Of a DNA stretch of 64,000 nt, positions 1 to 33,130 are shown one piece after another (position 1 is the first letter of the stretch; each line of letters opens with the position of its first letter). The notes under the pieces are model-generated. The model made no database searches. It worked only from the letters and a program-made list of their open reading frames with translations, and was not told the DNA's origin. Both the position numbers and the translations under genes were made by a program. This stretch comes from a virus. The stretch spans positions 32,001 through 96,000 of the IMG/VR virus record IMGVR_UViG_3300044653_000068, one strand, 5' to 3'.

Positions 1-1302
1 GGCGGACAACTGGATGTCGAAGCCGAACGCGAAGCTGTAGTTGTTGTTGGGGTACGCCATCGACGTGGTGGTGGCGGTGTTGGCGTACCCGTTGTTGCCC
101 GTGGAGGTCGTGGCCGTGGCGATGCCGACCGTGCCGGGGTAGTACTCCACCGCCTGGTAGGCGAACCAGGCGCTGGTACTGCTGCTGAACATCGTCGCGA
201 CGTACGTGGTGCCCGTGGAGAGCGAGACGGGCGACGAGAACGCGGCGTAGGCCCAGCCCGCGCCTGCGGTCGCGGCGGACCCCCCGGGCGCGGTCAGCCA
301 GGACGGGCTTGAGTTGCTCGCGACGAGCGTGCCGGTGGTGACGCTGGTGTAGGTGTACAGCCCGATTTCACTCGGGAACAGGGTGTTGCCGAACGGGCTG
401 TACTGCCACAGGCCGAGAAGCTGGGTGGCCGTGGATACGGTGAAGGAGAACCCGGTGGTGCCGGCGCTGCTGGCGGCGGCGTACGCCCCCCCGGTCCCGA
501 CAGGGTTGCCGCCGTTGAAGAAATTCCCGCCGGCCATGACGGGCGGCTGGGGCGGGGGAGGCGATCCGAACTTTCTGAACGACAGCGGGGACTGGCGCCC
601 GGGAGGGGATGCCGGGGGGATGACGGGCGCCGGGACGGCCACCCCGCCGCCCGCGAGCTGGAACGCGACGAGGAGGACCGCGTAGTTGTCGCCGGTGCCG
701 GTGAAGGTGAGCCCGTCAGTCTCCGTGCCGCCGGTGCTGGACTTGTACTGGACGATGTTGTTGCCCTGGCTGCCGGAGTTGACCGAGTTCGGGTCGAGGG
801 TCCAGCCGGAAGCCTGCGTGTAGGTGTTACCGTCGCCGCTGTCCGCGAGGAACGTGATCAGGTACTCGCCGGCGAGTGATGAGGCATACGTCGGCGACAA
901 GACCGGCGAGGTGGTCCCGGCCGTGCTGCCGAACGTACCGTCGAGGCACGCTGCGGCGGTGCTGCCCGTCGCGAGCCCCGAAACCTCCTGGACGACGATT
1001 GAGGGGCTGTTGGCGCCGCTGTACGTCGCGGTGATCGTCGGCTTGGTGCCGGCGTCGCCGGACGGGGTGTCGAGGACGTAAACGTAGCCGAACTGGCTGC
1101 CGCCGTTGAATGAGACAGTCGTCGCCACCAGGGCGAACGAGTTCCCGGCGGTGTCTTTCACGCTGGAGACCGTCACGCCGCCGCTGGACAGCACGTAGGC
1201 GATCAGCTTGCTGCCGGCGGTCAGGTTCGCCGTGGTGAAAGTCGCGGCGACCGACGTGCTGCCGGTTGAGCTGTTGGCGCTCTGAAGCCAGTTCCACGCC
1301 AT
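1..1302 (-). CDS. Ser/Thr/Gly-rich virion (tail/fibre-like) protein, 3' partial
   Basis: Hand translation from ATG 1302 (GGAGG upstream): MAWNWLQSANSSTGSTSVAATF..., open to the window edge; beta-rich domains joined by a Pro-rich linker; second domain resembles DUF4082. Confidence 0.75.
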   Translation of the reverse strand, partial: MAWNWLQSANSSTGSTSVAATFTTANLTAGSKLIAYVLSSGGVTVSSVKDTAGNSFALVATTVSFNGGSQFGYVYVLDTPSGDAGTKPTITATYSGANSPSIVVQEVSGLATGSTAAACLDGTFGSTAGTTSPVLSPTYASSLAGEYLITFLADSGDGNTYTQASGWTLDPNSVNSGSQGNNIVQYKSSTGGTETDGLTFTGTGDNYAVLLVAFQLAGGGVAVPAPVIPPASPPGRQSPLSFRKFGSPPPPQPPVMAGGNFFNGGNPVGTGGAYAAASSAGTTGFSFTVSTATQLLGLWQYSPFGNTLFPSEIGLYTYTSVTTGTLVASNSSPSWLTAPGGSAATAGAGWAYAAFSSPVSLSTGTTYVATMFSSSTSAWFAYQAVEYYPGTVGIATATTSTGNNGYANTATTTSMAYPNNNYSFAFGFDIQLSA

Positions 1303-7160: not shown

Positions 7161-7735
7161 GCGTCCTTCTTCCTGAGCATCGCCATGCCGTAGATGTAGC
7201 GGGCTTCCACCGCGTCCTCCGGCCGGCCGGCCGGGACGTGCGCGCCGCCCATGTCCGTGATGTCCGTCGCGGGCCTGATGCGCTCGATGAACGCTTGCGC
7301 CAGGGTCACCATCGACGTCCCGAAGTGCCCGTGGAACGGGTTGGACGGCAAGCCCACCGGCCAGTCCTCAAGCACGTACCAGCCGCCCGGCTTCACCAGG
7401 GGCCAGAGATTGCCGAACGTGATCTCCGACAGGCTGCCGACATGGGAGGCGTCGTCCACGATCAGGTCGTAGGGCCCGAACGGCATGACCAAATCCGGCA
7501 GCCCCGGGTCAGCCTGGTCGGCCTGGATGTGCACAACCCCGAGCGGCAGGCCCTCCGGCTTGCTCAGGTCCACGCCGACGATGACGCCCTCAGGCGCGAG
7601 ATCGCGCCACAGGAACAGCGACCCGCCGTGGGCGGTGCCGATCTCCAGGATGCGCGCGGCGCGGTTGCCCCCGAGCAGCTCCCTGTAAACGGGGGCGTAC
7701 CCGAGGGTGCCCTTGTCCGTCGTAGGCTCGCTCAT
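7157..7735 (-). CDS. SAM-dependent (sugar O-)methyltransferase
   Basis: ILEIGTAHGGS, LIVDDASH, KPGGWYVLEDW (MycE/Methyltransf_24-like). Confidence 0.85.
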   Translation of the reverse strand: MSEPTTDKGTLGYAPVYRELLGGNRAARILEIGTAHGGSLFLWRDLAPEGVIVGVDLSKPEGLPLGVVHIQADQADPGLPDLVMPFGPYDLIVDDASHVGSLSEITFGNLWPLVKPGGWYVLEDWPVGLPSNPFHGHFGTSMVTLAQAFIERIRPATDITDMGGAHVPAGRPEDAVEARYIYGMAMLRKKDA

Positions 7736-8247
7736 TTCGGCGGCACATCCAGCCAGTACCCGTCGTAGCTGCGGCTCATGATCAGGTAGTGGCCCTTCTC
7801 GCCGAGGATGTTCTCGTAGACGTCGGCGGTGTGCCCGCCCTCCGTGAAACCGTTGCCCTTGTGGAACGCGATGGTGCGCTCGTTGTCGGGCATGACCCGC
7901 AGCCAGTAGTAGTCGAGGCCGTAGGCGCTCATCAGCCGCCGCATCCCCTGCCGCATGAAACCGCCACGGGCGAGCGCCTTATCCCCGAGCATCATCCGCT
8001 CCAGCTCGCCGCCGCCGTGCCTGATCGTCATGCCCACGGTGCCGATGGGCTCGCCGTCCCGGAGCACGAGGTACAGGTTCTGCGAGGGGTCGGCCAGGTA
8101 CGTGCCGTGGTACCAGTCGTAGTGCCCGCTAAGAGTGAACGGCGGCTGCCTCGGGAACCAGCGGGCATTGTCCGGGTCATTGCGCCAGGCGACAAGGCGG
8201 GGAGCGTCGTCGGCGGTGATCTCCCGGAGAGTCACTTCATCGGTCAT
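7732..8247 (-). CDS. GNAT N-acetyltransferase (PseH-like)
   Basis: WRNDP..H..W, PIGTVG, V..DNERTIAFHKGNGF; ATG 8247 with RBS. Confidence 0.85.
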   Translation of the reverse strand: MTDEVTLREITADDAPRLVAWRNDPDNARWFPRQPPFTLSGHYDWYHGTYLADPSQNLYLVLRDGEPIGTVGMTIRHGGGELERMMLGDKALARGGFMRQGMRRLMSAYGLDYYWLRVMPDNERTIAFHKGNGFTEGGHTADVYENILGEKGHYLIMSRSYDGYWLDVPPK

Positions 8248-8255
8248 GCTTCTCC

Positions 8256-9044
8256 TCAGTGAGCGTCGTGCCTGGACCAGGCTGACAGCGGGGTCCAGCG
8301 GTGGGTGACGAGATAACGGGGGATAGGCCAGAACGGGAACCTCCCGACGAGGCGCTCCAGGAATATGCCGTCCGAGTGGCGGGCGATGGAGCCCTCCGGG
8401 TTCTCCTCGAAGTACGGGTAGGCCAGAGCGTCCAGGCACGTCTTGTGGTACATGACCTGGCCGCCGTCAATGCGGCAGTCTACGCTGCCGGGGAACATCT
8501 TCGGGTCCAGGGCCGGGATGCCGATGTCCGGCCAGGGACCGCAGTCCCCGGGCCCCGTGGGCGAGCCGTGGCGAAGAGAGCAGTAGACGACCCGGTAACC
8601 GGGGTTGGCGTCCAGTTCGCCGGCCATTATCTCCAGGCAGTCCGGGTCGAGCAGATCGTCGTCTGACAGGTGGAGGAGGTACTTCCCGTTCGCCTCCGGG
8701 TAGTAGACGTTCGGCAGCCAGCACGCGATGTACGTCTCACGGCGCTTCTTCTCAATCTCCTCCCCCTCCAGGCGCTCGTACTGCACCGAGCAGCCATCGG
8801 GAACCAGGCCCATGGCCTCCCAGCTCGCCAGCTCGTTCATGACCATGGCGTTCGTCACGTCATCGTTAGAGTTCTCCAGAATCCACAGCTCCCAGTCGGC
8901 CATGGTCTGATCGCGCACGCAGCGCATGGCGTCCAGCACGTACGCGCCCTTGTTATAGGACAAGATGAACACCGAGACCTTCGGTCCCTTGTGCTCGGGC
9001 TCGGGCTCGGCGGGTCGCGTCAGGGTCTGGCTAGTGAGGACCAT
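8256..9044 (-). CDS. glycosyltransferase family 2 (SpsA-like)
   Basis: VSVFILSYNK, QTMADWEL, GKYLLHLSDDD. Confidence 0.9.
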   Translation of the reverse strand: MVLTSQTLTRPAEPEPEHKGPKVSVFILSYNKGAYVLDAMRCVRDQTMADWELWILENSNDDVTNAMVMNELASWEAMGLVPDGCSVQYERLEGEEIEKKRRETYIACWLPNVYYPEANGKYLLHLSDDDLLDPDCLEIMAGELDANPGYRVVYCSLRHGSPTGPGDCGPWPDIGIPALDPKMFPGSVDCRIDGGQVMYHKTCLDALAYPYFEENPEGSIARHSDGIFLERLVGRFPFWPIPRYLVTHRWTPLSAWSRHDAH

Positions 9045-9296
9045 CTACGGTTCGCGCCACCCTAGTTCGAGAAGCCGCAGATGCTCGGCGTCCAGGTGCC
9101 GCTCTGGCTCCAGCTCGACCACGATCCTGCCATCGGCGGTGAAGAACCGCTGCTTGACCGGTACGCAGCACCAGTCTTCGGCAAGGTCCACCAGATCCCC
9201 CGGAATGGGCAGCACGGGGTACTCGCGCTCCGTGGTGAACTGGCGCGGCCCGCGCTGCACGTCGCCGTAGCACTGCTGCCGGATCTCTACCTTCAC
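9045..9296 (-). CDS. hypothetical protein
   Basis: 83 aa, operonic. Confidence 0.55.
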   Translation of the reverse strand: MKVEIRQQCYGDVQRGPRQFTTEREYPVLPIPGDLVDLAEDWCCVPVKQRFFTADGRIVVELEPERHLDAEHLRLLELGWREP

Positions 9297-9387
9297 AGGT
9301 CACTTCCTCTTCACGAGCTGGTCTACGTTGACGCCGTTGCGCTCCAGCCAGTTGAGCGTGGCATACGGTGAGTTGAGATCGTTCGGG

Positions 9388-9433
9388 TATGCCCTACCTT
9401 GCCCCGCCGTGCCAGACCTGGCCGAACCTGACC
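9388..9433 (-). repeat. GGYNN pentamer tandem repeat (x9)
   Basis: minus strand GGTCA GGTTC GGCCA GGTCT GGCAC GGCGG GGCAA GGTAG GGCAT. Confidence 0.7.
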
Positions 9434-9441
9434 CAGTGCGC

Positions 9442-10523
9442 TCAGACTAGTCCGTCTTTATAGGCCCATCCCACGGGGAACAGCATCTTGTAGGCGTCGG
9501 CCCATTCCCGCCAGTGGCCCTCGATCGTGTTCCTCCGGGCCTTCTCCTTCGCGGCCGCGCCCATCTTCAGCCGCAGGGCCTCGTCGCCGGCCAGCTCGGA
9601 CAGGAAGCTGAGCCACTCGTGCTCCCGCTTCACCAGGAAGCCGTCCACGCCGTGGTCGATGAAGCGCCGGTAGGGCTCCACGTCGCTGGCGACGACGGGC
9701 GTCCCGCGCGCCATGTACTCCAGGGCCTTGATCCAGGACTTGGACCTGCTGAACTGGGTGTCGAGCAGCGGGCAGATGCCGATGTCGAAGTCGATGGCCC
9801 GGTAGAAGACGTCGGGGTAGTCGCTGACGTGAATCCACGGGATGTGGAACGAGCGGCCCGGCGGGCAGCCGAACTTGTCCCTGTAGTCAACGCCGGACAC
9901 GAACAGGTCCCACTGCGGGAAGCGCTTCATGAACCGGCGGACCGCGCCCGTCGCCATCGTGACGTCGCGGGCGTGCGAAGCGCCGCCCTGCCAGCCGATC
10001 CGGGGCCTGTCCCGCCGGTCGTCGTGCCCGAGGCCCAGGACGAACTCGGGGACGTAGTTGGGCAGCACCACGACGGGCACCCGGCCCCCGGTCAGCTCGC
10101 GCGTCCAGTCGCCGAGGTGCGGCGAGGACGTGGTGACCAGGTTCGCGGTGGTGCAGTAGCGCAGCACGGCCTCGCGGGTCTCGCCGCCCTCGGCGTAGCT
10201 CTTGTACGCCGCCGCGTTCTCCGGGGTGATATTCCAGATATCGTCATCGTTTTCGTAGACGGTTCGGCACGTCGGCGTGGCCCAGCGCCGCCAGACCCCC
10301 AGCCCCTCGAACGCGTTGGACCGCTGCGACACGATCACGTCGGCCTCGGCTGCGTCGGTCAGCAGGAGCTGCTCGTGCTGTTCCTGCATCAGCTTCGGGC
10401 CGCCGGACCGGAAGGTGACCTTCACATCACCGGAGTGCTCGTTGACCGCCGTGAGGGGGACGAGCATGCGATACCAAGTAAAGCGCACCCGGAGCCGCCA
10501 TCGTGGCTGGCGAAGACTCTCAC
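9442..10523 (-). CDS. GT-B (GT4-like) glycosyltransferase with a frameshift near the 5' end
   Basis: YENDDD, IGWQGGASH, DIGICPL..FSRSKSWIKALEY; N-terminus VRVFASHDGGSGCA (GTG 10523) is out of frame with WYRML... Confidence 0.85.
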
Positions 10524-11587: not shown

Positions 11588-12337
11588 CTACTTCGCGAGC
11601 AGGCTCAGGTCGCCCTGGAGGGCCGCCAGGTTGACGCCGTGGCCGTCGAGCCCGGACGCCGGGACCTCGCCCCAGATGCACGCCCAGGCCTCGGTGGACA
11701 TGAGGTGCCAGGCGCTGTACTGGATCGCCTGGATTCCGCCCCAGGTGACGATGTACAGGTTGTCGCTGTCGTAGCCGACGATCGGCACGCAGTGGCCGCC
11801 CTCGACGTTCCCGTTCTGGAAGGTCGCCGCCGTCCACGGCTCGCCGTCCTGGAACGCCTCCATCATCAGGTCGGTGACCCGGATGCCGGTGTAGGCGTAG
11901 CCGTAGGCGTCAACCGCGAACTGGAGGGTCGCCATGTCGCGGATCGAGACCGGCGCGTAGGCGGCCAGGGTGCGGCCGAACCAGCCGGTCTTCTTCACGT
12001 AGGCGAGGAAGTCCGCGAGCACGACGCCGTTGTCCTCGCCGCCCGTGTAGGCCAGGTAGTACTGGACGATCTCGTCGTCTGTGACAGCGGCCAGCGCGGT
12101 GTGCGACTCCAGGTCCACGGTCATCTCGCCGTGATTGACGCCCGCGACGCCGCAGTCGCCGTACTGGTCGTTGCCGTCCATGCCCCAGGCGGTGCCATCG
12201 GAGGCCTCCGGCGGGACGGGGGGCGTGACGCTCAGGGGAGCGGCGGGCAGCGCGCCGGCCACGTACCAGGTCAGGTCGCGGAGACCGTTCGGGACGTGGC
12301 CGGGAAGACAGCCCAGCTTGAGGTTCGAGTGCGTCAT
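11588..12337 (-). CDS. papain-like (C1-type) cysteine protease
   Basis: GNDQYGDCGVA (Cys), GGHCVPIVGYD (His), YIVTWG. Confidence 0.8.
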   Translation of the reverse strand: MTHSNLKLGCLPGHVPNGLRDLTWYVAGALPAAPLSVTPPVPPEASDGTAWGMDGNDQYGDCGVAGVNHGEMTVDLESHTALAAVTDDEIVQYYLAYTGGEDNGVVLADFLAYVKKTGWFGRTLAAYAPVSIRDMATLQFAVDAYGYAYTGIRVTDLMMEAFQDGEPWTAATFQNGNVEGGHCVPIVGYDSDNLYIVTWGGIQAIQYSAWHLMSTEAWACIWGEVPASGLDGHGVNLAALQGDLSLLAK

Positions 12338-21936: not shown

Positions 21937-23619
21937 CTACGCGATGGTGTTCGTAAGATCATAAGATCTGCGCACCTTGTTCAGGACGTACGCCGCGTTC
22001 GTGGCCGAGGTGATCGGCGTGATGTCCGCCTCGGCGTCGCGCCTGCACCAGGCCTTGCCGCCGTCCCCGGCCACACGGGTGGTGGCGCGAGCCACGGCCT
22101 TCCAGAGCGTGGGGGACAGCTCCTCCCCGAAGTGCCACAGCCTCTGGTCCTTGACCTGCTGCATGAGGAACGCGAACGCGGCCGCCTCCTCGCCGGGGCC
22201 CACCGGGTACACGCGGTCGCCCCACTGGCGGATGGCGTCGTCGAGCAGCGCCGCGCCCGGCCCCGACTTGGGGATCGCGATCGACTTGGGGTTCCACTTC
22301 CTGCACTTGACGATCAGCCACGGGATCACCCAGGCGACGCCCTGGCGCGAGCCGTCGCGGGGCATCTCGACGACGATCTTCTTCTGCTTGTGCTCCCAGG
22401 CGCACATCACCGTGGCGGACTTGCCGTCCTCGTCCACGTCGATCCCCACGACCATGGGGGGCGTCGGCATGCCGGGGTCCTCGTTGGTCAGCATCTTCCA
22501 GGCGGGCTTGCTGATTACCTCCCAGGGCTCGTCCTCAAGCGGCCAGTTGCCGATGGCGAGGCGCTCGATGTCGAACTTCCTGGGCGGCATCGTGTCCAGC
22601 TCGGACCGGGTGAACCCGGGGCTGATGCGGTAGCCCATGCCGGGGTTGGCCCTCGCCCAGGAGCGCGGGTCGTCGCGGTCGTCGTGCAGGTCGCACACGA
22701 TGTAGTAGTTGTCCTCGCGCCCGTGCGCCTCGTCCCTCGGGCAGCTCTCGTCGTGCGGGTTCACGGACCATTCCGCGCCGAACACGCCGGGGGCCTTCTT
22801 CTTCATGTTCTGGCGCATCTTGGCGAGCTGGGCGGACACCGTGCCGTCCTCCAGTCCGGCCGAGGCGGCGTAGATGATCTGCGGGTTGGGCCGGGCGGAC
22901 ATGGTGGGCATCGACGCCCCTACCTGCTCGTCGGACAGGATCATGGCCTCGTCGTAGACCAGGCAGTCGCAGGAGAACCCGCGCGAGGTGGCCGCGCCCG
23001 AGCGCGCGTGGAACTCCAGCTTGGAGGCCCGCCGCCGGAGCATCTGCCGGCCGCCCGCGCCGAAGATCAGCGTCGGGCGCGGCTTGAGGATGATCGCCTC
23101 CTTGCCGTTGCCGGTCCGGATGTTGGAGACGCGCCGGGCCAGGGCCGGGTACTCCAGCAGGACCATCTGGAGCCGCTCAAGGTGGTTGAGGCTCGTCTTG
23201 AGCTGATGGCTTGTGTGGATGATCAGCTCCTCCTGGAGCACGAACAGGCCGAACAGCTCGCGAACCTCCAGGCAGGTGCCCTTCCCGTTCTGGCGGGACA
23301 CGATCAGCACCGTGTTGAGGGCGGACCACATGCCGTCCGGCTGGCGGCCCATCATGTGCCGCAGAACCCAACGCTCCCAGGGGTCCAGCTCGTAGCCGAA
23401 GCCCTCGGCCCACTCCAGGGCCTCCTGCGCGACGTGATCGCCGCAGCCGTGGGAGTGCCTCTCCTCCTCGGCCTCCAGCGCGCACATCAGGCAGCCCGGC
23501 TGCTGCGCCTCGTGACGCGGCGGGATGGAGTAGAGGCGCGGCATCTGGTCGCCCATGAGCGGCCCCTCCATGAAGGTGCCGTCAGGGAGCTGGACGCGCT
23601 CGGTAAGTCGGTTGGCCAC
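21937..23619 (-). CDS. terL: terminase large subunit
   Basis: Walker A SRQNGKG, Walker B LVYDEA, SRGFS, ANPGMG, nuclease GIDV...DIT. Confidence 0.96.
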   Translation of the reverse strand: MANRLTERVQLPDGTFMEGPLMGDQMPRLYSIPPRHEAQQPGCLMCALEAEEERHSHGCGDHVAQEALEWAEGFGYELDPWERWVLRHMMGRQPDGMWSALNTVLIVSRQNGKGTCLEVRELFGLFVLQEELIIHTSHQLKTSLNHLERLQMVLLEYPALARRVSNIRTGNGKEAIILKPRPTLIFGAGGRQMLRRRASKLEFHARSGAATSRGFSCDCLVYDEAMILSDEQVGASMPTMSARPNPQIIYAASAGLEDGTVSAQLAKMRQNMKKKAPGVFGAEWSVNPHDESCPRDEAHGREDNYYIVCDLHDDRDDPRSWARANPGMGYRISPGFTRSELDTMPPRKFDIERLAIGNWPLEDEPWEVISKPAWKMLTNEDPGMPTPPMVVGIDVDEDGKSATVMCAWEHKQKKIVVEMPRDGSRQGVAWVIPWLIVKCRKWNPKSIAIPKSGPGAALLDDAIRQWGDRVYPVGPGEEAAAFAFLMQQVKDQRLWHFGEELSPTLWKAVARATTRVAGDGGKAWCRRDAEADITPITSATNAAYVLNKVRRSYDLTNTIA

Positions 23620-27976: not shown

Positions 27977-28052
27977 GGTGGCGGGAGCCGGATTTGAACC
28001 GGCGACCTGAGCGTTATGAGCGCCCCGCGCTGCCGAACTGCGCCATCCCGCT
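27977..28052 (-). tRNA. tRNA-Met(CAT), initiator-like
   Basis: full cloverleaf, loop CT-CAT-AA, A1:C72 mismatch, TATAGT -10 at 28092-28097. Confidence 0.92.
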
Positions 28053-29001: not shown

Positions 29002-29814
29002 TCACGAATGCGCTGCGTGCTCTGTGACACCTGAAGCGGCCCACCAGGGCTCCGGCGGCGTCAACCCGCGCCTCGTGTAATAGTGCTGCTGCATCCGATG
29101 TCGGTTCGCGTGGGTCGCGCAGTCAGAGCAGAACTTAGCTCCACCGTGCGTCAGCACCGCATCACAACCTTCACAAGCGCAGATTTTGACCGGCCGGGGC
29201 GGTTTCGGGGCCTTCACCGGCCGCTTTTTACTCGGAAGCACCGAAATCTGCTCCGGCGCGAGCAAAAGCTCCGGATGCGCGTTCATGAACGCGATTTCCT
29301 CCGAAGTCATGCGATTTCCGCGCTGAACGTTGCAAATCTGATGCGCGGCGCGCTTGTTGGCCGAAACGTCGATTCCGCCGAGACTGAGCGGGATAATGTG
29401 ATCCACATTCGGCGCCAGCTCGTTGGTTTTGGGCGCTTCGGGGTCGATCGGCATGCCGGCGGCCTTGCACCACGAGCCGAGCTGGCACATTCCGCCCGCA
29501 CGCTCGTAAATCTCCCTGTCAGGCACACCGTCCCAGGTCTTGATCTTGTTCAGCTTCCGAGCCCGCGAACTGGCCTTCCTCGCCGCAGCCTTGTCATACG
29601 CAGGCAGTGAATCCAGGTAGCACTGCTTCGAGCAGAACTTTGGCTCGCGCCCACTATGCCGGTCCCCCCCGTCAAACTGCTTCCCGCACTGAAGGCAGAG
29701 ATACTGGCGAAGATGACGACGACAGCGCCCGCACGTCGGACTTTCTCTGCTCCCCCCTTTAGGATTCCAGTTTGCGGGTTTTCCGCAGATAGAACAGGGT
29801 CTGTATCTCGGCAT
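29002..29814 (-). CDS. HNH endonuclease with multiple Zn fingers
   Basis: VDHIIPLSLGG...NKRAAHQICN..RG; KFCS..C motifs; leaderless TAGGCT-N6-ATG. Confidence 0.9.
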   Translation of the reverse strand: MPRYRPCSICGKPANWNPKGGSRESPTCGRCRRHLRQYLCLQCGKQFDGGDRHSGREPKFCSKQCYLDSLPAYDKAAARKASSRARKLNKIKTWDGVPDREIYERAGGMCQLGSWCKAAGMPIDPEAPKTNELAPNVDHIIPLSLGGIDVSANKRAAHQICNVQRGNRMTSEEIAFMNAHPELLLAPEQISVLPSKKRPVKAPKPPRPVKICACEGCDAVLTHGGAKFCSDCATHANRHRMQQHYYTRRGLTPPEPWWAASGVTEHAAHS

Positions 29815-30102
29815 GCGCGCAGCCTACCTGCTTCTCTCCCGCCTAACAACTGGAGAAACCTCCTCCGCTACCGCAAAGTTCAGTAACCGAACTTAATTTT
29901 GTATTTTGCCTGGTCAGCAGCGTGGACTCACTTCGCGAAATCGAAAAAACAGGCGAGTGACCGGCTTAGGTCGCGGGGTTTTTCGAGCTGGTTGGGGATT
30001 TCGGTCAGCAGATCGTCCCCGGTCAAATTTCGCTAAAAAACTCATTCGAATTATAGGCGCATATAATTTTTCGAATTCTTTAATGGTAGCTGACACTGGG
30101 GG

Positions 30103-30192
30103 TAATGATTATGCTAAGTGCAATGATTGCAATGAGTATAATGATTGCAATGGTGGATGGGTGCAATGCGTATAATGATTGCAATCATTGCA
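30103..30192. repeat. AT-rich AATGATTGCAAT repeats with a 16-bp palindrome
   Basis: AATGATTGCAAT x3; palindrome AATGATTGCAATCATT at 30174-30189. Confidence 0.85.
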
Positions 30193-30243
30193 CTAGACAC
30201 ACTCATACAACTAGTTGTGTGCAGCCAGCGCACACTGACATGT

Positions 30244-30331
30244 GTCAGTGACAGTGGTCAGTGACACGTGTCAGTGACAGTGGTCAGTGAATACAGATTC
30301 AATGACTCGCGTCAGTGACAGTGGTCAGTGA
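30244..30331. repeat. 21-bp direct repeat x3
   Basis: GTCAGTGACAGTGGTCAGTGA at 30244, 30270 and 30311. Confidence 0.9.
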
Positions 30332-31159
30332 CACTCGTCAGTGTGGCAGTAGTCAGGCAGTAGCACACAGTTAGTTGCACGTGCACACAGCTGGTAATAC
30401 CACACTGCATTGGTAGGTTGCCTGATTACACCGTTGCACTGCTGGTCACAGCAACGCTTCGAATTAGCTTTGTAGCAACGGCAGAATACGATTGGTCTAG
30501 CAAGCACGCTAACGAATTAGGCCTCTGACCAGCACGAACACCGAAACGGACATTTGGGCGAAAATCCCCGCCAGGATTCCCGCGATAGACAACCGCTTGG
30601 AAGGCCTTGCACCCGTCAGATTGGCTGTTTGACGCCTTAGACGCGTTTCCGCTGGTCAGACACCGAATTCGCTGGTCGAAATGAACCGTTTAATTCCGCT
30701 TTGTCACCGAATGCCCGAATCTCCGAGCCGGCGCTATATGACTAGTCATGCTGTGACCGGTCACATAGCCGTTCTGCGACCCGAATAGCCGCTAGCTGAC
30801 AAACGTGTCCTGGCAGGCCGGTAAAGCCTGCCTAGCGGGCTGTGAAGTGGCTTCACGCGGCATTCCGAGTCTTGCCTCTCACGCGCGTACGCGTACGCGT
30901 ACGCGCATCGCGCGCCGCGCCCGGCCGGACTGTGAAGTCAGTAAACGGACATTCGGTGCACCAATAGGACAAACTACCCCAGTTTCATGAAATTTTATCA
31001 TGACATTTCACGATATGTCCCGTTTTGTCCTCTCGAATAAGATTCGCACATGCCCGGAATGCCCGAAATGCCCGAATCCGGAAAATGCCTGTGACCTGCA
31101 CCGTTACCTAGCCGTTATTCTAATTAAGCCTCTGACCTTGAGTCTGACAGGATGCACCT

Positions 31160-32345
31160 AGTTGTTCGTCCGCCCGGTCCCCCGGGAAGCTTCCGGGGAT
31201 ATCACAGCCCGCTTAGGCGGGTGGGGGCATGCGGTCCGCGCTTTGGCGGATGAACGGGCAACCGACAACCTAGCTCGCGATAGATGCGGTCGGCTGAACG
31301 GGTTTGCGCCTAGGCGCAATGCTTCCCCTAGTAGGCCGGCGCGTGAGCGGCAATAACCCCTAGGGACGCCCTTAGGGCACTACCGCGCGAGATAACTACA
31401 TGCACACGCACACGGGAAACGATGGCCGTATGGCCAAAGAGTCGCGCGTGAGTCACCGATACCGGATTGGCCTGCCTAGGTTGGCTGCAAGTCTCGTCAC
31501 GGTTCAAATCGGCTTTGTGCGCAGTGCCTTTACCAAGGTGCAAACTCTGTGTTCTGAAGATGGTTTTTCAGATCACGGGAACGTGAGTCAATTGGTATCG
31601 GCCGACCAAACCAGTGATCACGGTTGCTGACACGGTGCGCATGGCACGCGTTAGGGATACGGCTTTAGCCAAAGGTTCCCAGTATGAGGTTTCGTGCATG
31701 GGGTTCCTGTCAGCCATCGATGGAAACATGGCAGGGGTACGCGGTTACCGACATCCGCCTATGGCTTATCTGAGCTGGATTCACGCCACGGTCACGGGAC
31801 ACGATGCGCATTGATGCGCGGGAAACGTCCTAGCGACAGTCAGCTTTGCAACTGACATGGTGCAGAAATTCCGGGATAGCTAGCAATCGATCGGCCGCCC
31901 AATAAGCGGTCAAGCTTTACCTGTTTTACCGCTAGGAAACCCGAACCCGGAGAAATCACTAGCTAATAGCACTCCGGCAACGACCTAGCGCGTTTAACCT
32001 CCGGTCACGGTCGCAAGCGCATATAGCGGCGCTTAGGCAGGCTATGTAAATCCGGAGTTATCCAAACGTGTTTTACCGCAGTACGGTTGCCAACGGTTGC
32101 CGCGCTTAACAATCGCTTAATGTTCAGGTCCGCTCAATGGCCGGCGCTAACGCGTTCGGTTGCATTGCGCTTAACTGTTCATATGCCTAGCGGTTGTGCG
32201 CCTAGCGCGGTACCCGTTGGCGTTCCGTATCGCACGGTGCACGCTATGACGGACACGAATTAGATGTGTTGCGGTAACGCTCTGTTGCGCTATGCCAATC
32301 TATCTAATCTGAAATACAACCGATCATCGTGCACCGTGCGAACCA
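31160..32345 (+). ncRNA. candidate large structured non-coding RNA (about 1.2 kb)
   Basis: no credible ORF; nested long helices with G-U pairs; GNRA and YUAG loops. Confidence 0.65.
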
Positions 32346-32371
32346 CGTAACTCTAGTGAAAGGGGTTGGCC

Positions 32372-32623
32372 ATGCGCCTAAAGCGTGGTACCACGCGCGC
32401 AGATATCAAACGCGCGGCATTGCCCTACGGTGGCCGGGTAACCGATGCTGCCCACATTACAGCGCCGCTACACAGCAATGCGCCTACCCATAATCCGGGT
32501 AACGCGCTTGCCTCTATCCGCGCGGCCGCCGGCATGGGGTCACAGAACACTAATCGCCAGTTGAAGAATGGCGGTATTTCCAGCTACTACCGGACACGAC
32601 AGGGTAAGGGGTACGGACTGTAA
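32372..32623 (+). CDS. basic early hypothetical protein
   Basis: GAAAGGGG RBS. Confidence 0.55.
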   Translation: MRLKRGTTRADIKRAALPYGGRVTDAAHITAPLHSNAPTHNPGNALASIRAAAGMGSQNTNRQLKNGGISSYYRTRQGKGYGL

Positions 32624-32744
32624 TGCGATCACTCATCCGTCGGCTTATGCACGGCAACGGCAATCACGTGCGCGTCCATGGCAGGCACGCGCGAGTCAAG
32701 TTCTAACATCCCGGCAACCGATCACCTCACCCCAGGAGATTCCA

Positions 32745-32993
32745 GTGGTCACAGCAACGGCAAACACAGTCACGCACCCCAACTGTGACGCGCGTGATGC
32801 CGCCGGCGTCATTCTCGCCAACGTCAAGAACGCCGCACTACCGGACGTGCTCAAGTCCCTCGCGCGTGCCGAGAAATTCGGCTGTTGGCCGATCGGCCGT
32901 GCGCAGGTCACGCACACGGGATACGTCCGCAACGCCGTGCACTACGACGCGAGCACGGCTATCTACCGCGTCACGCTAGGCCGGTTGGTCTAG
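32745..32993 (+). CDS. hypothetical protein
   Basis: AGGAG RBS, GTG start. Confidence 0.55.
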   Translation: MVTATANTVTHPNCDARDAAGVILANVKNAALPDVLKSLARAEKFGCWPIGRAQVTHTGYVRNAVHYDASTAIYRVTLGRLV

Positions 32994-33130
32994 ATGCTCA
33001 TTCACATCTTCATCGCAGCTATAGGCGTTGTCATGCTCATGACGTGGGGCCTAGGCATCCTGGCACATCGGCGGGGCGGCCTGTTCCGCATCCAATACGG
33101 CTCCAGCTTCCATAAGGGGTACACGCACCG

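Follow-up and report, generated by a model that had tools for sequence, protein, structure and literature searches.

A conserved long hairpin capped by an invariant tip precedes the early operon in the gene-free control region of an uncultured siphovirus

The large RNAs GOLLD and ROOL, which lie in gene-free stretches of phage or prophage genomes, are characterized by conserved sequence cores and covarying multi-helix folds. Much smaller elements are found in the early transcripts of phage T7, in which the RNase III signals are interrupted hairpins of at least 20 bp located just upstream of early-gene ribosome-binding sites. The put RNAs of phage HK022 are promoter-proximal and cis-acting, need no phage protein and bind to the host RNA polymerase (PMC9378689). 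Similarly, the RNA canT of Tn916 was shown to be an orientation-specific, cis-acting, processive antiterminator, which precedes the long operon of a mobile element and does not depend on further genes of this element (PMC11658703). Other structured elements act on the level of single-stranded DNA. For ssoA it was shown that the element of approximately 160 nt forms a large secondary structure when single-stranded, that it is primed by the host RNA polymerase in an orientation-specific manner and that it contains the conserved motifs RSB and CS-6 (PMC5703833; PMC4598088). Moreover, Frpo elements are located in the leading regions of plasmids (PMC11541004), and the PeSL cassettes of T4-type phages are conserved stem-loops that accompany functionally uncharacterized early genes in variable genome regions (PMC2839356).

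Here, we compare these systems with a locus of an uncultured virus. The window, i.e., the whole stretch of DNA that was analyzed, has a length of 64,000 nt and represents bases 32001–96000 of a 115,256-nt IMG/VR virus record, which is 98% complete. The source phage is a 115-kb uncultured siphovirus with an overall GC content of approximately 68%. Its minus strand carries the genes for the large terminase (TerL), the portal, the protease and the major capsid protein; the identity of TerL to its counterparts in Rhodococcus, Arthrobacter and Mycobacterium phages is only approximately 31%. Every gene left of position 29814 is transcribed leftward, and a long series of small rightward genes starts at 32372. 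The phage also carries Ro60 and Y-RNA-like genes. The junction between both arms is organized as follows:

21937–23619, minus strand: gene for the large terminase (TerL)
29002–29814, minus strand: gene for an HNH endonuclease (Pfam HNH PF01844, E 5.6e-5), forming the packaging-side border of the gap, with TerL 5.4 kb beyond on the same strand
29815–32371 (2557 nt), unstranded: gene-free, low-GC, CTAG-rich control region separating the leftward packaging/virion arm from the rightward early arm, as judged from the ORF map and the codon-position GC
32372–32623, plus strand: first early gene, encoding 83 aa with a basic N-terminus and preceded a few bases 5' by the RBS-like sequence GAAAGGGG

The first-pass annotation of this DNA had reported a gene-free stretch at 31160–32345. 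The stretch is indeed gene-free, and the gap is wider than was described, comprising all 2557 nt of 29815–32371. A codon-position GC signal was not found across the gap, and the internal ORFs of 53–76 aa did not result in a Pfam or PHROG match in any case. The 83-aa protein encoded by the first early gene matched no Pfam or PHROG family either; a homologous small protein is present at the equivalent position in the related phage L022. The GC content inside the gap drops to 51–58% compared to approximately 68% in its flanks. The tetranucleotide CTAG, which is depleted in the rest of the genome, occurs 21 times in the gap compared to 6.5 ± 2.5 times in dinucleotide shuffles, and perfect palindromes are enriched over the whole gap as well (29 compared to 11.6). 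Within the gap the following elements were identified:

30096–30356, unstranded: two iteron arrays in inverted blocks, with a 9-bp unit at 30096–30203 and a 13-bp unit at 30220–30356 (repeat families D1, D2, I1 and I2; TRF)
30484–30584, unstranded: conserved non-coding block in which TTCGAAT, CGATTGGTCTAGCAAGC and a GGACAT box occur, with 67.6% identity to the related phage G001 (E 3e-9)
30813–31030, unstranded: weakly conserved block containing CTGTGAAG as well as boxes of the GGACAT type, 59% identical to G001 (E 0.001)
31160–32225, unstranded: non-conserved CTAG-rich spacer, forming the bulk of the stretch of the first-pass annotation
31304–31319, unstranded: 16-bp perfect palindrome TTGCGCCTAGGCGCAA, operator-like
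32230–32341, plus strand: conserved long hairpin of 112 nt with a 14-bp perfect basal stem, an interrupted middle stem and an invariant tip
32273–32296, plus strand: the invariant 24-nt tip GGTAACGCTCTGTTGCGCTATGCC, which with its variable loop base reads GGTAACGCTC(T/C)GTTGCGCTATGCC

Four related phages (G001, L022/G005, L035/G015 and L019) were identified by searches with TerL and with a flanking protein of 141 aa; in all four, synteny is kept on both sides of the gap. For the 141-aa protein closer homologues exist with 87%, 73% and 67% identity (P0001, P0002 and P0005); the DNA comparison rests on the more distant loci obtained from metagenome, genome and viral scans. A gene-free low-GC gap of 2.3–3.1 kb is present in each of G001, L019 and L022, and L035 has the same divergent junction. 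Lineage-specific iteron arrays occupy the same relative place on the packaging side in L019, L022, L035 and G001, at a distance of 1.7–2.5 kb upstream of the first early gene, and in the window phage the arrays fold with z-scores of −5 to −7.5 on both strands. Collinear conservation is limited to 30001–30088, 30484–30584, 30813–31030 and the terminal hairpin. The block at 30484–30584 reaches 73% identity to L022 over 30513–30577, and the 10–11-mers AACGGACATTC and GGACATATCGT are common to the window, G001 and L019. Palindromes similar to the operator-like one occur inside the gene-free region of each relative, namely GCGCCTAGGCGC in L019, GTGCCTAGGCAC in L022 and TGCGCCATGGCGCA in G001. A clear origin signal was not found in the cumulative GC skew, and a blastn search of the region against 50,697 phage records resulted in no match.

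Taken together, it is very probable that the stretch 31160–32345 belongs to a divergent control region of 2.56 kb in a 115-kb siphovirus and forms the early-proximal part of this region, in which the packaging half is protein-binding DNA and the rest a fast-evolving CTAG-rich spacer. The packaging-proximal half (~29.9–31.0 kb) with its iterons, palindromes and conserved boxes is probably classic protein-binding DNA with origin, operator and promoter functions. The sequence from 31.16 to 32.22 kb evolves fast, varies in length and is rich in CTAG; it represents a spacer and not a conserved RNA.

This contrasts with the first-pass annotation, which had read the whole of 31160–32345 as a candidate new class of large structured ncRNA, acting as decoy, scaffold or antiterminator, a reading that we regard as most improbable. 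The stretch is gene-free, and the statement that it has no match in Rfam is correct: cmscan was performed at the gathering threshold over the window and with E-values up to 10 over 29500–33000, and within 31160–32345 it returned nothing except a snoRNA match at E 2.1, with no match to the GOLLD and ROOL models. Furthermore, the stretch as a whole folds better than shuffled sequences (z −3.3 on the plus and −2.6 on the minus strand), the spacers of the relatives have a slight folding advantage over shuffles, which is seen on either strand (z −1.1 to −3.3), and the stretch would be a transcribed leader if an early promoter is located near 31.0–31.3 kb. The reported helices that were checked are present at their positions. 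However, most of them are perfect 8-mer inverted pairs, of which we estimate approximately 10 to occur by chance in 1.2 kb. A dense folding beyond chance, as had been proposed, is not seen in 200-nt windows over 31101–32300, for which the z-scores range from +0.5 to −1.6 on the plus and from +1.4 to −1.4 on the minus strand; the sole outlier is the 200-nt window 32201–32400 with z-scores of −4.0 and −3.7. It is the terminal hairpin which supplies most of the folding excess, and without it 31160–32225 reaches only −2.3 on the plus and −1.2 on the minus strand. The presumed plus-strand bias based on G-U pairs also disappears on comparison with shuffles, as the energy gap between plus and minus strand of −31 kcal/mol lies within the expectation of −20 ± 9.

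Moreover, 31160–32222 contains no sequence that could be aligned with G001, L019 or L022 although the flanking non-coding blocks align, and the spacing between the conserved block and the hairpin amounts to approximately 1.65 kb here compared to approximately 1.0 kb in L022. The likeness to GOLLD and ROOL ends with the gene-free location in a phage genome, whereas neither a conserved core nor a covarying fold was found in 31160–32225 on comparison with G001, L019 and L022. With folding barely above that of shuffles and nearly symmetric between the strands, and with a spacer that is unalignable in relatives and variable in length, a single structured RNA of approximately 1.2 kb is left unsupported by the outcomes that the first-pass annotation had itself named as telling against it. 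Thereby a false lead is removed: there is no new giant phage RNA at 31160–32345.

The same lack of conservation, together with the variable length, the absence of a coding signal and the absence of family matches, might be taken to indicate that the spacer at 31160–32225 is functionless, consisting of decayed genes or of filler whose only role is to space the operator/origin half from the early genes. We consider this as improbable. A gene-free spacer of 1–1.65 kb is kept in all relatives, the genomes of which are otherwise tightly packed. CTAG is enriched 2.3–4.4-fold in the gaps of the window phage, G001, L019 and L022, with none of 500 shuffles reaching the observed count, and every relative contains a palindrome of the same family. 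Within 31160–32225 of the window phage CTAG was counted 12 times compared to 2.7 ± 1.5 in dinucleotide shuffles; perfect palindromes of at least 8 bp were not enriched within this interval (8 compared to 5.8 ± 2.5).

The one conserved structured element of the stretch is the 112-nt hairpin at 32230–32341, and we are highly confident that it is real. Its final helix had been described as a perfect pairing of 13 bp; the helix is real and covarying, and its length has to be corrected to a perfect 14-bp pair formed by 32230–32243 and 32328–32341. The hairpin folds with z-scores of −5.6 on the plus and −5.1 on the minus strand. In L019, a tip identical in 23 of 24 positions caps a 106-nt hairpin (z −4.4) with unrelated arms, and in the relative G001 the same region is present but the hairpin was not found. 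An exact-word search of IMG/VR with 17 bases of the tip resulted in 17 loci. The full 24-nt tip is present in 13 other viral contigs, which span 45–74% GC and are mostly unrelated, and the only variation is the T/C position of the loop. In at least 10 of the 13 contigs the tip caps a hairpin of 100–147 nt, the arm sequences of which differ throughout. Two further loci contain a 19-nt core in other flanks, also placed on hairpin tips, and two look like chance matches. The 12 hairpin instances that were compared are single and unbranched with a length of 59–147 nt, 16–52 pairs and unrelated arms. Scans in which one half of the tip, either 3' or 5', was left free did not reveal variant members, only unrelated and probably coding repeats.

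A covariance model (R1) built from the hairpins of the window phage and L022 resulted in full-length matches in six further loci. In the alignment obtained from R1, which is fitted to the model and includes some reverse-strand rows, 34 of 41 pairs show compensatory changes on both sides, and 89.5% of the cells are paired compared to 66.5% in shuffles and 24–46% if the partners are slid. Rfam gave no match at any of the hairpin instances tested. Beyond the viral contigs, a search of the tip in the 50,697 cultured phage records resulted in only three partial chance matches in Aeromonas tail-fibre genes, and a search with free loop in one genome of each of 185,579 prokaryote species yielded 15 matches in unrelated contexts without loop or hairpin; no paper containing the tip string was found in the searchable literature. 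Located where the early operon starts, the hairpin is a genuine, covarying element that has not been described before.

The strand on which this fold is selected bears on its function. The stems are approximately 92% Watson-Crick, the G-U pairs in the antisense and the sense fold amount to 38 and 43, respectively, and the sense-fitted alignment contains 15 G-U compared to 10 A-C pairs. As the G-U pairs are symmetric between the strands, they do not mark sense RNA as the selected strand, and a single-stranded DNA hairpin fits equally well. The main rival to a leader RNA is a priming or second-strand signal of the sso- or G4-type ssi-like kind, which would fold on the displaced strand during replication and would be read by the host RNA polymerase or primase, although we judge this to be rather unlikely. 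Like the sso elements of rolling-circle plasmids and ICEs (ssoA, ssoU, ssoT and ssoW), the hairpin is a long, imperfect, orientation-specific, single-copy structure of 100–150 nt, and its tip is shared by unrelated replicons without a common element-encoded protein, an architecture matching that described for ssoA, in which short conserved motifs common to unrelated replicons are read by the host RNA polymerase (PMC5703833; PMC4598088). The iteron arrays as a possible origin are located 1.7–2.5 kb upstream of the hairpin in the four related phages that bear it, the window phage included. A comparison by eye with the motifs RSB (TTATGCCGAGAAAATTT-like) and CS-6 (TAGCGT; PMC4598088) yielded weak 6–7-mer echoes, i.e., TATGCC on the sense strand of the tip for RSB TTATGCCGAG and TAGCG on the antisense strand for CS-6; these echoes are on opposite strands and within the range of chance. 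Moreover, sso elements belong to rolling-circle replicons, have defined RSB and CS-6 motifs and are flexible in their position relative to genes, whereas the position before a start codon is fixed here, and an sso would have no reason to be located 21–115 nt before a start codon and 0–9 genes from the head of an operon. Several of the hairpin phages encode their own replication proteins. Tailed dsDNA phages are not known to use sso elements, which also counts against a role as single-stranded DNA.

The genomic context of the hairpin is uniform. Its orientation is always that of the next gene, the start codon of which follows 21–115 nt after the hairpin base; this spacing is too short for a promoter between the hairpin and the gene. 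In the five loci L025, L030, L032, L033 and L036 the hairpin is intercistronic, and because the genes on either side are co-directional it is almost certainly transcribed there. The proteins encoded downstream are diverse small unknowns, including DUF2786/DUF7168 and DUF7222. The tip is strictly single-copy, considering up to six mismatches in this genome and up to three in 14 other records.

A leader or intercistronic location 21–115 nt before the RBS and a stem of 30–50 mostly Watson-Crick base pairs with internal loops are also expected for an RNase III-type site that processes or stabilizes the early polycistronic mRNA, similar to the sites R0.3–R1.3 of T7, at which cleavage leaves a protective stem. 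With the T7 signals the hairpin shares the interrupted stem just ahead of an early-gene RBS. RNase III needs no specific tip, and a letter-perfect 24-nt tip in unrelated phages would be left unexplained. Moreover, T7-type sites are multi-copy, without invariant tip and recur between many genes, whereas the tip-bearing element was not found repeated between the early genes. We therefore attribute only a small probability to this explanation.

A sigma-70 promoter scan did not locate a promoter upstream of the hairpin. With at least 8 of 12 matches, a −35/−10 pair was found in either arm or orientation in none of 12 instances, for which the hosts' own consensus may differ. This bears on the reading as a DNA-level promoter of the first early gene, which would be active as a single strand or as an extruded hairpin in the manner of Frpo or N4; this reading is very improbable. 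The position of the long hairpin immediately before early genes, some of which are anti-defence-like (DUF2786/DUF7168, DUF7222), would be in agreement with it, and Frpo elements show the same placement in plasmid leading regions (PMC11541004). However, next to the absence of the promoter elements, the bulges and internal loops disfavor the extrusion of a cruciform. Furthermore, tailed phages inject double-stranded DNA and the hairpin promoters of N4 have stems of 5–7 bp, which both argue against a promoter of this kind. PeSL cassettes resemble the element as conserved stem-loops tied to early genes of unknown function; these cassettes occur many times per genome and consist of a sigma-70 promoter and a terminator stem-loop, whereas the hairpin occurs in one copy, shows no promoter consensus, has an invariant tip and is not followed by a T-tract after its stem, so that it was rejected as a PeSL cassette. 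Rejected as well was a Ro60/Y-RNA-binding stem: Ro60 does not co-occur with the hairpin outside the window phage, as the TROVE domain was found in none of the 15 other records searched, 14 of which bear the hairpin.

Among the records with the hairpin, only G005 and G015 have TerL or DNA polymerase in common with the window phage, and an all-against-all BLASTP comparison of six near-complete hairpin phages did not reveal a protein family common to all of them. The absence of a common family points to a host partner or to a mechanism based on RNA only, and it is consistent with the protein independence of put-type elements. The single copy, the sense orientation, the promoter-proximal place and the lack of a common phage protein argue for a leader signal that is read by the host machinery. 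We tentatively propose that the hairpin is an early-operon leader RNA, in which the invariant tip on its long stem would be shown to a conserved host machine resulting in processive transcription, similar to put and canT. According to this proposal, transcription of the early-operon leader would include the hairpin as RNA, the long stem would present the tip to the elongating host RNA polymerase or to Nus factors as the most plausible partners, and the contact would render transcription of the long early operon processive, as for put in HK022 and canT in Tn916. The conservation and covariation of the element, its presence in one copy and its constant direction and place are observed, whereas its action as RNA, its partner and antitermination are inferred.

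With putL and putR the leader hairpin would share the cis-acting, promoter-proximal role in early phage operons without a phage protein, and a binding to the host RNA polymerase as for put would explain why the tip is conserved across unrelated phages. Promoter-proximal placement in cis, co-oriented with a long operon, is also observed here: in six genomes the hairpin has the sense orientation and is separated by 0–9 genes from the start of a long operon of co-directional genes; in five of these genomes a strand switch directly precedes it. We know of no sequence likeness between put and the hairpin. The put elements have a length of approximately 70 nt, form two stem-loops in a V shape and are present in two copies per genome, whereas here a single copy of one hairpin of 100–150 nt is found; a single unbranched hairpin of 59–147 nt is thus not a member of the put family. 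With canT the hairpin would share the orientation-specific, cis-acting and processive action, the place in front of a long operon and the independence of other genes of the mobile element (PMC11658703). However, canT is part of a Firmicute ICE, and its activity requires a fragment that is several hundred nucleotides long and for which a complex fold is predicted (452 nt were used, 341 nt were active and 291 nt inactive), whereas the element described here is a simple hairpin in phages. Intrinsic terminators are not in excess in the downstream operon (14 compared to 15.8 expected). As one long hairpin without terminator excess, the element belongs neither to the put nor to the canT family. The missing terminator excess, the single long hairpin unlike put, the absence of the hairpin from G001 and the lack of a located upstream promoter suggest that antitermination should be viewed with caution. 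The antiterminator function, which had been assigned to the whole stretch, is a live option for the element at 32230–32341 alone.

The letter-perfect conservation of the tip across genomes of 45–74% GC could also reflect base-pairing with a universal host RNA. The loop CUCUGUUGC is, as we assume, the complement of a conserved segment of RNase P RNA, GUUGCGCU presumably that of the 1100 region of 16S rRNA, and CGCUCU is taken by us to resemble the start of boxA; each of these correspondences could be due to chance.

As a summary, the combination of a control region, a real hairpin and a cis-acting leader signal is the best overall explanation of the locus, even if its chance of being correct in full is somewhat below even. 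At close to an even chance, the hairpin is the first example of an undescribed and widespread class of single-copy cis elements of uncultured, probably virulent phages, the invariant tip of which would be presented on a long stem of free sequence to RNA polymerase or Nus factors as RNA, or to RNA polymerase or primase as single-stranded DNA, thereby switching on processive expression or replication. The layout of iterons, GGACAT boxes, CTAG-rich spacer and hairpin provides an annotation template for the control regions of this uncultured phage group. A 24-nt tip that is letter-identical in otherwise unrelated phages, on stems that conserve nothing but base pairing, is the hallmark of direct contact to a partner not encoded by the phages. 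If this partner is RNA polymerase, the hairpin would serve antitermination or processivity as a portable signal that needs no protein; it would occur much more widely than put or canT and be useful as a genetic part. If it acts as single-stranded DNA, an sso-like signal would be seen in tailed phages for the first time.

The following sequence elements lie in the gene-free region between the leftward packaging and virion genes and the rightward early genes:

30096-30356, two dense iteron arrays with 9-bp and 13-bp units, about ten copies each, in inverted blocks
30484-30584 and 30813-31030, two non-coding blocks also conserved in the related phages G001 and L022, with the motifs TTCGAAT and CGATTGGTCTAGCAAGC
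31304-31319, perfect palindrome of 16 bp, TTGCGCCTAGGCGCAA

The iteron arrays fold with z-scores of -5 to -7.5 on the plus and the minus strand alike, and in the relatives arrays of other kinds occupy the matching relative position. They are candidates for an origin or for terminase or regulator binding sites. The conserved blocks carry GGACAT-type boxes common to the window, G001 and the related phage L019, and they probably serve a conserved regulator as operators or promoters. Moreover, a palindrome similar to that of the window, G(Y)GCC followed by TAG/ATG and then GC(R)C, is found inside the gene-free region of every relative.

Furthermore, CTAG occurs at 2.3-4.4 times the dinucleotide-shuffle expectation in the gene-free regions of the window (29815-32371), G001 (locus L016, 9626-11966), L019 (5821-8932) and L022 (reverse-complement coordinates 7801-10200), the relative L035 being left out, and is mostly flanked as (C/G)CTAG(C/G). 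Across the remaining genome it is about 4-fold depleted.

Downstream of the gene-free region, the first early protein (32372-32623) is small and homologous to that of L022 (2487-2753, minus strand); both have a basic N-terminus and a common C-terminal motif GG.S.YYR.R.G.G, and neither matched a known family.

The 19-nt core of the invariant hairpin tip, TAACGCTCTGTTGCGCTAT, is also present in a second context with the flanks cac...ggtagccgg in two further phage contigs (L021, 3403-3468; L034, 331-410), where it again caps hairpins, here of 66-80 nt. Two other contigs, which carry the long hairpin, contain a small hairpin with a cUUCGg or GCGA loop (L033, about 7450-7468; L036, about 11720-11740, minus strand), placed after the upstream stop codon and before the long hairpin. 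These two tetraloops are a pair typical for RNA.

Both ends of the phage record (G000:1-2300 and G000:112800-115256) fall inside an array of Y-RNA-like genes adjoining a 537-aa ORF (putative Ro60), which suggests a circularly closed assembly, with the contig broken inside one of its repeats. One array unit gave a sub-threshold YrlA match (L102, the piece G000:1-2300, 129-200, minus strand; 37.3 bits, E 1.1e-5).

Two features belong to the packaging side:

27979-28052, minus strand, tRNA gene (59.2 bits)
29002-29814, minus strand, HNH endonuclease gene, the first gene leftward of the gene-free region

Genes of the packaging arm flank the tRNA gene, and 1.8 kb separate it from the gene-free region. 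The HNH gene lies 5.4 kb upstream of the large terminase gene (TerL) on the shared strand. In cos phages with a terminase-assisting HNH protein the HNH gene is arranged likewise near TerL, and because the layout found here matches theirs, the physical genome end may be located outside the gene-free region, between the HNH gene and TerL.
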